Source: an uncultured Alphaproteobacteria bacterium (lineage in GTDB: Bacteria > Pseudomonadota > Alphaproteobacteria > RF32 > CAG-239). Taken from it: a stretch of 24,000 nt of DNA. The stretch lies in the NCBI GenBank assembly GCA_946629975.1, contig CAMOYJ010000008.1:21043-45042 (forward strand), written 5' to 3'. The notes under the pieces are model-generated. The model worked only from the letters and a program-made list of their open reading frames with translations. It was not told the DNA's origin and ran no database searches. Below, in pieces: positions 22,842-24,000 of the stretch. The translations under genes and the position numbers were made by a program. Position 1 is the stretch's first letter, and each line of letters starts with the position of its first letter.

Positions 22842-22870
22842 TTGACAATTTAGACAAATTATAGTAATAT
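22842..22870 (+). promoter_or_regulatory. Near-consensus sigma70 promoter: TTGACA-N17-TAATAT
   Basis: TTGACA at 22842..22847, a 17-nt spacer at 22848..22864 and TAATAT at 22865..22870. AAGGAG (22893..22898) lies 7 nt before ATG 22906. Confidence 0.55.
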
Positions 22871-22905
22871 GTCGATATGAACCATTTTTATCAAGGAGAC
22901 CCTCA

Positions 22906-24000
22906 ATGGCTGACAAATCTTTCTTAGAAAATTTTGAAGATATTGATTTTCAAAACATATCTCTTGTGGATTTGGTTCTCTTAGAAGATAAAGTTAATTC
23001 TCTATCTGGTCTTGAAGATAAAGATTTATTGAAAATTGAAGCCATAAAAGAAAAAATTGCTCAAAAATATGGCGAATTCAAGCATTCTCCTGATATTCCC
23101 GACTTACGTTTTACGGTGCACGAAATCCGAACAGGTTATAAGCCTGAAGATTTTGAGAGTTGGAATATGGTGCGTCCTGTTCGTGAAGATAACGGTTGGT
23201 CCGGCAACAATGGTTGGAAAATACATTTAGATGTCGTTCCAAACCGTAATCACCCTCTGACCAAAGAGATTTCAGATTTTTTACTTAATCTTGATATTGA
23301 TCATAAAATTGCACATGGCGGTAAAAATGGTAAAGGTATGACGATTTATATCGGAAGTTATGCTGATACAGTTCGCCTTTCAAAAGAAATACAAAACCGT
23401 TTTGGAGATAGACTTCCTGTGCCCCCTGTTTATACAAATCAGGTACATCAAGAAACCTCTTTAGAGGCCGCCATATATGGGCGTTTTGTTCCTGGTGCCG
23501 GTGCTTCTTACCCGCGTACTAACATCGGCATTGGTTTGCTTGGCACAAACCAAATGATCGAAGAAATATTGCATACCAGATCAACTCTTAATAAAGAGCA
23601 AAGGTCTGAATGGGCTGTTCAGATGGCATATAACCATCACAAGTTATATGCAAAGCTTTTAGGTTCATACTACTATGGCGATGACATCAATGCTTTTGAA
23701 GAAAAGTTCTTTGGTAATCGATTGCCTCCGAAAGGTTCAGAAAAACGTTCTCAAATGGATGCTAACGCTGAAATCTTTGAAAATGACCTTAAAACAAATG
23801 ATCCTAAAACATATGCTTCCATACAAAACCTAAACAAAGGATATATTGCCGTTGATTTTTCAAAATTGCCAGCAAAAAAACAAAATACCGAAATTTTAAA
23901 TTCCAAAATAAATGATAAAAGGACAACAACCATGGCTGATAGAATTTATACAAAAGAAGATTTAGAAAAATATTTGGATAATCAAGAAAAGTATCTTTTT
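22906..24000 (+). CDS. Hypothetical protein, at least 365 aa (3' end beyond the window); N-terminal region has a phosphothreonine-lyase-like motif constellation
   Basis: Absent from the ORF track because no stop occurs within the window. My translation from ATG 22906 is open through 24000: MADKSFLENFEDIDFQNISLVDLVLLEDKV...NNGWKIHLDVVPNRNHPLTKEISDFLLNLDIDHKIAHGGKNGKGMTIYIGSYADTVRLSKEIQNRF...KRTTTMADRIYTKEDLEKYLDNQEKYLF. It has a strong promoter and SD. The functional call is motif-based inference only. Confidence 0.75.
   Translation, partial: MADKSFLENFEDIDFQNISLVDLVLLEDKVNSLSGLEDKDLLKIEAIKEKIAQKYGEFKHSPDIPDLRFTVHEIRTGYKPEDFESWNMVRPVREDNGWSGNNGWKIHLDVVPNRNHPLTKEISDFLLNLDIDHKIAHGGKNGKGMTIYIGSYADTVRLSKEIQNRFGDRLPVPPVYTNQVHQETSLEAAIYGRFVPGAGASYPRTNIGIGLLGTNQMIEEILHTRSTLNKEQRSEWAVQMAYNHHKLYAKLLGSYYYGDDINAFEEKFFGNRLPPKGSEKRSQMDANAEIFENDLKTNDPKTYASIQNLNKGYIAVDFSKLPAKKQNTEILNSKINDKRTTTMADRIYTKEDLEKYLDNQEKYLF

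Follow-up and report, generated by a model that had tools for sequence, protein, structure and literature searches.

A kinase-less clade of phospho-Ser/Thr-lyase-like domains, found at the N-terminus of a probable giant protein from an uncultured Alphaproteobacterium

Effectors of the OspF/SpvC/HopAI1 type (structures 2Z8M, 2Q8Y, 3I0U) are delivered by type III secretion and act, independently of any kinase of their own, on a substrate that another enzyme has phosphorylated. In SpvC, K136 is the base and H106 the acid, K104 and Y158 stabilise the carbanion, and K104, R148, R213 and R220 are phosphate ligands (PMC4159009). A structurally homologous lyase domain (Pfam RamC_N, PF25816) is found in the lanthipeptide synthetases LanKC (class III) and LanL (class IV), where it operates with a kinase, a cyclase and a leader-peptide system. 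For one of these, ThurKC (8SAM, 8SAO, 8SAP), the equivalences K65=K104, K117=R148, R163=R213 and R191=R220 with SpvC have been stated, and the K65A and R163A variants are inactive (PMC10604976). Further branches of the fold include the HopA1 effector family together with the class V lyases LanY/LxmY (PF17914; 4RSW, 9DK1), and BLES03/C11orf68-like proteins, which have been proposed as eliminylating domains (PMC4159009). Here we analyse an open reading frame (ORF) at the edge of a 24,000-nucleotide stretch (‘the window’) of contig CAMOYJ010000008.1 from an uncultured Alphaproteobacteria bacterium. Its product carries a domain of this fold and belongs to a new kinase-less clade, one that lies outside RamC_N, LanKC/LanL and OspF/SpvC as those families are delimited.

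Translation from the ATG at 22906 to base 24000 gives 365 codons without a stop, and the frame is missing from the mechanical six-frame ORF list because it runs off the window end, both as read in a preliminary description of the sequence. The encoded regions are as follows.

22906..24000, + strand: ORF truncated by the window edge after 365 codons, probably encoding the initial ~20% of a protein of ~1,800 residues
22906..23088, + strand: N-terminal helical region, residues 1-61, with helices H20-31 and H38-59 in an AlphaFold2 model; acidic, without a signal peptide
23089..23541, + strand: phospho-Ser/Thr-lyase-like alpha/beta core, residues 62-212, delimited by a domain model, Foldseek, Pfam RamC_N and hhalign
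23548..23880, + strand: family-specific helical subdomain (residues 215-325) that forms one compact high-confidence unit with the core in the prediction
23881..24000, + strand: low-confidence linker (predicted local distance difference test score, pLDDT, <50 at residues 326-350) and the beginning of a long C-terminal extension that the window end interrupts

RamC_N matches residues 72-137 of the protein over profile positions 7-69 of 191 (E 2e-4, 21.4 bits) and is the only Pfam family to recur among its relatives, being found in 18 of 24 close-family members at E<=0.1 and in 11 of 72 distant relatives at E<=0.01, with a best score among the latter of E 5.7e-6. In NCBIfam, LanKC and LanL were the sole matches, at 16.2 and 11.2 bits. 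When PDB sequences were searched, phmmer and a close-family profile returned noise only and a broader profile was required; the broad family profile reached ThurKC chains at E 0.0066-0.009 and a further LanKC-like chain at E 0.036. Profile-profile comparison with hhalign matched the family to a profile of 21 LanKC-lyase (RamC_N) sequences at 95.8% (E 6.7e-9, 76 columns), against 79% for the close family alone and 62% (E 7e-5) for the window sequence alone. The consensus of those 21 proteins, QGWKIHxS...FK...SGKFITIYP, bears out the lanthipeptide-lyase pattern that the preliminary description had given.

The same description had likened the protein to SpvC and OspF. Residue order, spacing and fold agree with this likeness; sequence kinship does not, since hhalign of the family profile against SpvC gave 4.3%, which is not significant, and SpvC/OspF chains were lacking from the PDB sequence matches of the phmmer and family-profile searches. 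A genuine LanKC profile scored lower still against SpvC (0.35%), though LanKC and SpvC are established structural homologs, and the 4.3% therefore says nothing for or against membership of the fold. As judged by sequence comparison, the kinship of this domain is with LanKC/LanL lyase domains and not with SpvC/OspF, and it is homologous to RamC_N without formal membership of that family.

Structure prediction points the same way. An AlphaFold2 model of residues 62-212 built from 94 sequences has a pLDDT of 88.9 and a predicted template-modelling score (pTM) of 0.86, and its top 16 Foldseek matches in the PDB are all phospho-lyase-fold proteins: class III ThurKC, PneKC and SalKC, trifunctional CuvL, the HopA1 effector (4rsw) and the class V lyase LxmY (9dk1_B). 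These matches range from E 6.7e-4 to 0.23 with probabilities of 0.38-1.00 (>=0.84 for the first 14), and the TM-scores normalised to the query are 0.35-0.50. The model of all 365 residues (pLDDT 79.9, pTM 0.78) places a very confident helical subdomain after the alpha/beta core and again has ThurKC as its top PDB match (E 0.04, probability 0.98), while Foldseek against the viral structures of BFVD gave no match. In the model, residues 62-212 are thus superposable on known lyase domains and fall within the fold superfamily.

The residues expected of an active site were mapped by hidden Markov model (HMM) and profile-profile alignment, with the sequence P0177 carrying the ThurKC numbering.

23218..23226, + strand: K105-I-H107 in G-W-K-I-H-L-D-V, conserved in 93/93 relatives and aligned with ThurKC K65/H67; predicted phosphate- and carbanion-stabilising Lys and general-acid His
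23302..23307, + strand: H133-K134, with K134 conserved in 92/93 and aligned with the invariant FK (K94) of LanKC lyases; predicted general base
23329..23349, + strand: G142-K143-G-M-T146-I-Y148, aligned with ThurKC GK117FITIY122; K143 a predicted phosphate ligand, Y148 predicted to keep the base deprotonated
23482..23487, + strand: R193-F194, with R193 on ThurKC R163 (YRYGG) in the HMM alignment; predicted phosphate ligand

In this mapping K105 corresponds to ThurKC K65 and SpvC K104, H107 to H67 and H106, K134 to K94 and K136, K143 to K117 and R148, Y148 to Y122 and Y158, and R193 to R163 and R213; the equivalences to SpvC H106, K136 and Y158 are drawn because the motif register is shared. 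The catalytic tetrad K104/H106/K136/Y158 of SpvC is therefore found, by alignment and conservation, as K105/H107/K134/Y148. Three of the four phosphate-binding basic residues (K105, K143 and R193) are likewise present and conserved, giving six of seven active-site positions, the seventh being SpvC R220 or ThurKC R191. The SpvC residues named in the preliminary description (K104, H106, K136 and Y158) are right, the SpvC sequence used for the check being 100% identical to 2z8m_A and showing them together with R148; right too are that description's codon coordinates for K105 (23218-23220), H107 (23224-23226), K134 (23305-23307) and Y148 (23347-23349).

Conservation was assessed at two depths. The close relatives number 23, at 34-50% identity, and none bears a name beyond ‘hypothetical’; where sources are named, they are metagenome-assembled genomes (MAGs) of Alphaproteobacteria. 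In their alignment W104, K105, H107, L108, D109, H133, K134, G142-T146, Y148, R193 and F194 are invariant. When 1.84 billion representative proteins, reduced to 50%-identity clusters, were searched with the profile, at least 296 cluster representatives matched at E<=1e-3, and the core module (profile positions ~100-225) recurs among them at the N-terminus, internally or at the C-terminus of proteins of 66-6,105 residues. Across a set of 93 relatives, 71 of which share only some 20-30% identity with the window protein, K105, H107, R193 and F194 are conserved in every one, K134, T146 and Y148 in 92, and K143 in 90. Conservation to this degree puts the motif far beyond chance. Besides the residues common to lyases, the family has invariant features of its own, namely F194, H133, E183 and the helical subdomain. 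We found no description of this family in the literature searched, and PHROGs and PADLOC gave no meaningful match.

The central suggestion of the preliminary description, a diverged phospho-lyase-fold protein with a K-x-H/K/Y layout, is in this way backed by profile search, structure search and conservation. On the refuting outcomes it had named, the profile, structure and conservation checks came out in its favour: profile searches match the lanthipeptide-synthetase lyase domain (Pfam E 2e-4, ThurKC E 0.0066, hhalign 95.8%), structure search with the pLDDT 88.9 model has only lyase-fold proteins in its top 16, and the four residues are kept in orthologs and distant relatives (92-93/93), together with K143 and R193.

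Homology, fold and the conservation of six of seven active-site positions are observed; from here on we infer catalysis, the type of substrate and the place of action. We consider it rather likely that this N-terminal domain is catalytic and removes, by beta-elimination, the phosphate that another enzyme has placed on Ser or Thr of a substrate. The proposed chemistry is an E1cB (elimination via the conjugate base) reaction, in which K134 would take the C-alpha proton from phospho-Ser/phospho-Thr, K105 and Y148 would stabilise the carbanion and keep K134 deprotonated, and H107 would protonate the departing phosphate, itself held by K105, K143 and R193. The product would be dehydroalanine or dehydrobutyrine, so that the phosphosite would be irreversibly erased.

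The domain sits in a protein that is probably much larger than the window allows one to see. The closest ortholog (P0027/P0171, MBR2299084.1) has 1,838 residues and is 82% identical across all 365 residues of the edge ORF; residues 343-365 align with its residues 343-365, after which it goes on for ~1,470 residues. A new gene starting at M342 (ATG 23929) was considered and rejected, the frame staying open and the ortholog being continuous through that point. Judged from this alignment, the edge ORF is probably the N-terminal domain of a giant protein of ~1,800 residues in a gut or rumen alphaproteobacterium; a metagenome scan for the contig of the window itself gave no match. The preliminary description had put the protein at least 120 residues longer than SpvC; the direction was right, but the size was a large understatement, since this is a giant and no slightly enlarged SpvC. 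Within the visible part, residues 1-61 are conserved in the close family only. The helical subdomain is predicted with high confidence (ten-residue pLDDT blocks average 88-97 over residues 231-320); its motifs HKLYA, LGxYYxG, FExxF and PxKGxxxR are near-invariant in the close family, and its G253 is conserved at >=90% in distant relatives.

A Pfam scan of the 1,838-residue ortholog found zero domains, and neither it nor 14 other large relatives contains a Pkinase or LanC-like domain in Pfam. The ortholog, encoded at 8001-13517 of the best-matching locus (L005), shows PVDEK repeats in tandem, the repeat ‘EEYKIVHG’ twice and two Gly/Ala-rich segments of weak hydrophobicity, the regions of note being residues ~1090-1230, ~1560-1590 and the last 50. 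As the Gly/Ala-rich segments occur in this protein only, a transmembrane anchor was ruled out as a family trait. Its C-terminal tail is net basic, with 11 K+R against 3 D+E; alphaproteobacterial substrates and signals of type IV secretion have this feature.

Relatives of the core occur in several other architectures. In MAGs of 22 gut or rumen alphaproteobacterial species (loci L011-L034), a paralogous domain makes up the C-terminal third of proteins of ~740-1,165 residues whose genes are fixed between gyrB and polA (for example L017:5508-9005 and L011:6573-8984). The N-terminal part of 18 of these 22 paralogs has a conserved HELGHxFNATH motif (HExxHxxxxxH) resembling zinc metallopeptidases, with sub-threshold Reprolysin matches, and a faint LPD7 match was also seen; such an architecture would carry two warheads. 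Giant proteins of phage contigs (6,105 and 2,670 residues) enclose distant relatives, and in IMG/VR viral contigs the core module is found in ORFs of 3,221 residues (L042:3765-13430) and 2,478 residues (L045:6558-13994). The largest of these proteins (P0053, L036:10001-28318), with capsid and tail-tube genes nearby, contains DUF4326, DprA and UvrD-helicase domains and a PI3/PI4-kinase-like segment at ~2915-2957 (32.8 bits, above cut-off), which precedes the lyase-like module (3117-3219) by ~160 residues. It is possible that the two form a kinase-plus-lyase ‘dehydratase’ pair outside the biosynthesis of peptides that are ribosomally made and then modified post-translationally (RiPPs).

In a protein of 1,371 residues (P0051, L035:2831-6946) a TrwC relaxase and an AAA_30 helicase are followed by a C-terminal lyase-like module (residues 1065-1183). 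Relaxases move into recipient cells in conjugation, and the fusion could offer the domain a way of being delivered. Small relatives of ~230-250 residues, one of them archaeal-looking, stand in housekeeping contexts; a protein of 233 residues (P0059, L038:3186-3887) is encoded directly 3′ of a gene for a Hef-like helicase/ERCC4 nuclease, with FEN1/XPG and FtsZ genes close by, and this archaeal-looking context suggests that the fold also has endogenous roles. Some homologs additionally carry a module of ~200 residues (VSLGAKDKDG..IPDYEDF..LAAK.QG..I.FG.IK.PEF.ARLMLACLEN.V) without a Pfam or PDB match, which lies C-terminal to the lyase-like domain in P0001, P0004, P0006, P0007 and P0024 and N-terminal to it in P0022 and P0023.

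Upstream of the edge ORF, the window contains the following elements.

22737..22768, + strand: intrinsic-terminator hairpin (-17.8 kcal/mol in RNA folding, z -6.6) with a T run after it, at the end of the upstream M3 oligoendopeptidase (pepF-like) gene
22842..22870, + strand: sigma-70-like promoter candidate, TTGACA at 22842-22847, a 17-nt spacer and TAATAT at 22865-22870, score 10/12
22893..22898, + strand: Shine-Dalgarno sequence AAGGAG, 7 nt 5′ of ATG 22906, read directly

The start codon is backed by homologs that share its position. The M3 oligoendopeptidase model fits the upstream gene (20909-22738) with E 5.8e-117, and in view of the strong hairpin terminator at 22737-22768 the edge ORF is an independent transcription unit, set off from the pepF-like gene. 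The promoter-like site and AAGGAG reported earlier are indeed present, and the site is a good one, but not uniquely the best in the window, as had been claimed: the promoter-like site ties at 10/12 with eight others, and the 54 such sites in the window, set against 44.6 +/- 6.5 in shuffled sequences, show no enrichment. An Rfam scan of 22500-24000 gave no match.

A scan of 185,579 species genomes returned 30 loci; wherever the source label is informative, it names a gut or rumen MAG of Alphaproteobacteria or of unclassified proteobacteria. The best, L005, is from a roe-deer rumen MAG and carries the 1,838-residue gene. Synteny with the window is kept across kdsD, holC, degP, hflC, hflK and mrp, and both the window gene and its ortholog follow the mrp position in a conserved chromosomal block (hflKC-degP-holC-mrp). 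Between the two loci, amino-acid identity is 74-96% for the neighbours and 81% for the edge ORF. The GC content of the edge ORF is 35.3%, and 26.3% at third codon positions (GC3), with a window mean GC of 39.9%; the other window genes range from 30.9 to 46.5% GC, and two others have a GC3 of 0.22-0.28. Low GC and housekeeping neighbours had been read as the mark of an acquired effector. With composition only mildly low and within the range of the window genes, a syntenic position after mrp and a divergence like that of the neighbours, a recent acquisition is unsupported, and horizontal transfer on the ground of GC content was therefore rejected.

The pepF-like gene at 20909-22738 exceeds all other window genes in GC3 (0.536; the others lie at 0.22-0.44) and is not present in the otherwise syntenic L005, where the giant gene directly follows mrp; an insertion is more readily suggested for it than for the lyase-like gene. 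Elsewhere in the window, at 13819-14877 on the - strand, one ORF of 352 residues matches LptC (residues 40-212) as well as LptA (225-342); it encodes a fused LptC-LptA protein, unless the mechanical ORF call has joined two separate genes.

No kinase, cyclase, precursor-peptide or transporter gene was found beside the gene in the window, in L005, in L001-L004 or at the 22 gyrB-polA loci, and a RiPP cluster was ruled out on the lack of kinase, cyclase and precursor genes across about 35 neighbourhoods. Given that neither the polypeptide nor its neighbourhood holds a kinase, cyclase or precursor-peptide gene, the substrate would most likely be a protein phosphorylated elsewhere, by analogy with OspF/SpvC, rather than a RiPP precursor. 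As to where the domain acts, our leading guess, which we hold tentatively, is delivery into another cell as the warhead of a multi-domain conflict protein. This is favoured by the conflict-type relatives, that is, the phage giants of 2,478-6,105 residues, the TrwC relaxase fusion, the metallopeptidase-like fusion and the PI3/PI4-kinase-like neighbour.

Several results weigh against a delivered phospho-lyase. The Pfam score of 21.4 bits is below the curated gathering cut-off of 27 bits, and the NCBIfam scores of 16.2 and 11.2 bits compare with equivalog cut-offs of 575 and 650, above which a protein counts as a tri-domain lyase-kinase-cyclase enzyme, so that formal membership is lacking in each case. 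SpvC and OspF are missing among the 50 Foldseek matches listed for residues 62-212, and the core has no conserved basic residue matching SpvC R220 or ThurKC R191; H245, K246 and R281 of the helical subdomain are candidates for that position, as assessed in the close family only. With respect to delivery, neither a signal peptide on the edge protein nor a secretion-system gene was seen in the 24-kb window, and the synteny, the housekeeping-like divergence, the fixation between gyrB and polA in 22 species and the relatives in archaeal contexts all fit an endogenous role.

These points leave room for four other explanations. That the motif resemblance is a coincidence in a protein unrelated to phospho-lyases appears extremely improbable: modest scores speak for it (Pfam below its gathering score, a best Foldseek E of 6.7e-4 and query TM-scores of 0.35-0.50), but HMM search of Pfam, profile search of PDB sequences, profile-profile comparison and structure search are four independent lines that agree on family and register, and all top 16 structural matches share one fold. 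The absence of the R220/R191 counterpart, the position of the clade below the curated thresholds of known lyase families and its own invariant F194, H133, E183 and helical subdomain would also be expected if the fold and its basic pocket had been kept for another chemistry or substrate, whether a non-protein phospho- or sulfoester (sugar, lipid or nucleotide) or a phosphopeptide-binding or phosphatase-like module, and the fold is indeed common to non-lyase proteins such as eIF4E (PMC4159009). We regard this as unlikely, in that the elimination residues K134, H107 and Y148 are conserved in 92-93/93 relatives, whereas the non-catalytic eIF4E is without equivalents of K136 and H106 (PMC4159009).

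A role as one part of a split, lanthipeptide-like RiPP dehydratase whose kinase is encoded by another gene, similar to class V LanY/LxmY with LxmK, would account for LanKC/LanL lyase domains being the nearest sequence relatives and for LxmY being among the structural matches, and short stand-alone RamC_N proteins do exist. The neighbourhoods surveyed above are nevertheless free of RiPP genes, and the domain is fused to >1,400 unrelated residues, a relaxase or metallopeptidase-like regions, which makes such a role highly unlikely. An endogenous eraser of bacterial Ser/Thr phosphorylation, kept in the producer cell with its long C-terminal part as an anchor or scaffold, is a serious alternative, though still a somewhat unlikely one. 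It draws on the lack of a signal peptide, on a syntenic gene whose divergence keeps step with that of its housekeeping neighbours, on the gyrB-polA paralogs and on the small relatives in housekeeping contexts, including the archaeal-looking one. Irreversible loss of a cell's own phosphosites would be unusual, however, relatives occur in phage giants and in relaxase and peptidase fusions, settings characteristic of proteins destined for other cells, and the C-terminal tails are net basic, as in alphaproteobacterial type IV secretion substrates. Returning to the delivered warhead, it is possible, if doubtful, that the family represents a third, large and unannotated kinase-less lyase branch that serves, in the giant proteins of gut and rumen Alphaproteobacteria and phages and in conjugative relaxases, at times paired with a metallopeptidase-like module and once with a PI3/PI4-kinase-like one, to erase Ser/Thr phosphorylation irreversibly in recipient cells. 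The targets could then be kinase-based anti-phage or anti-plasmid defence, or the signalling of a eukaryotic host or rumen protist.

If the clade is active, irreversible ‘eliminylation’ of phosphoproteins would be much more widespread, extending to commensal gut and rumen Alphaproteobacteria, giant phage proteins, a conjugative relaxase and archaeal-looking genomes. Giant proteins that are otherwise wholly unannotated would gain a testable catalytic domain, and a new strategy of anti-defence or host manipulation would be suggested. The six conserved residues offer ready-made mutants, and the phosphopeptide-library assays used for OspF would be directly applicable.

Set beside described systems, the architectures of the distant relatives, with giant phage proteins and a TrwC relaxase, resemble the polyvalent proteins of phages and conjugative elements (Iyer et al. 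2017, PMC5512222), a paper in which a lyase, OspF or dehydro-amino-acid domain is unmentioned. Polyvalent proteins are carried on mobile elements, whereas the window gene is chromosomal, among housekeeping genes and syntenic across species; a phage or conjugative location was found only for P0053, P0060, P0051, L042 and L045. BLES03/C11orf68-like proteins are another proposed kinase-less branch of the fold, with archaeal members (PMC4159009), but they gave no sequence match in our scans and are without the His general acid, which is invariant in the window family. The HopA1 effector and LanY/LxmY share the fold (Foldseek E 0.014 and 0.079) and are, like the window domain, stand-alone lyase-fold proteins with no fused kinase. 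Pfam HopA1 has no match in the window protein, and LxmY is complexed with a dedicated kinase from its RiPP cluster, a partner not seen for the window gene.

With OspF, SpvC and HopAI1 the window domain would share its proposed chemistry and the logic of acting without a kinase of its own on a substrate phosphorylated by another enzyme, and it has the same K-x-H, K, Y order, at a His-to-Lys distance of 27 residues rather than 30. It differs from them in lacking significant sequence similarity, in having no identified MAPK (mitogen-activated protein kinase)-docking N-terminus or type III secretion context, in a full size about 7 times that of SpvC, and in the basic residue before the Tyr, which is an Arg ten residues upstream in SpvC (R148 and Y158) and a Lys five residues upstream in the window family. 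This last arrangement is that of ThurKC (K117 and Y122), and the LanKC/LanL lyase domains, represented by ThurKC, PneKC, SalKC and CuvL, are the closest relatives by sequence and structure. In the window family the kinase, cyclase and leader-peptide system are lacking, as are the ~14-residue loop between K94 and K117 of ThurKC and a conserved counterpart of its R191; an extra helical subdomain is present, and the domain is set in giant proteins of Alphaproteobacteria and phages instead of RiPP clusters. What the two have in common is the register of their motifs, with GWK-x-H, [FH]K, GK-x-x-T-[IV]-Y and R-[FY].

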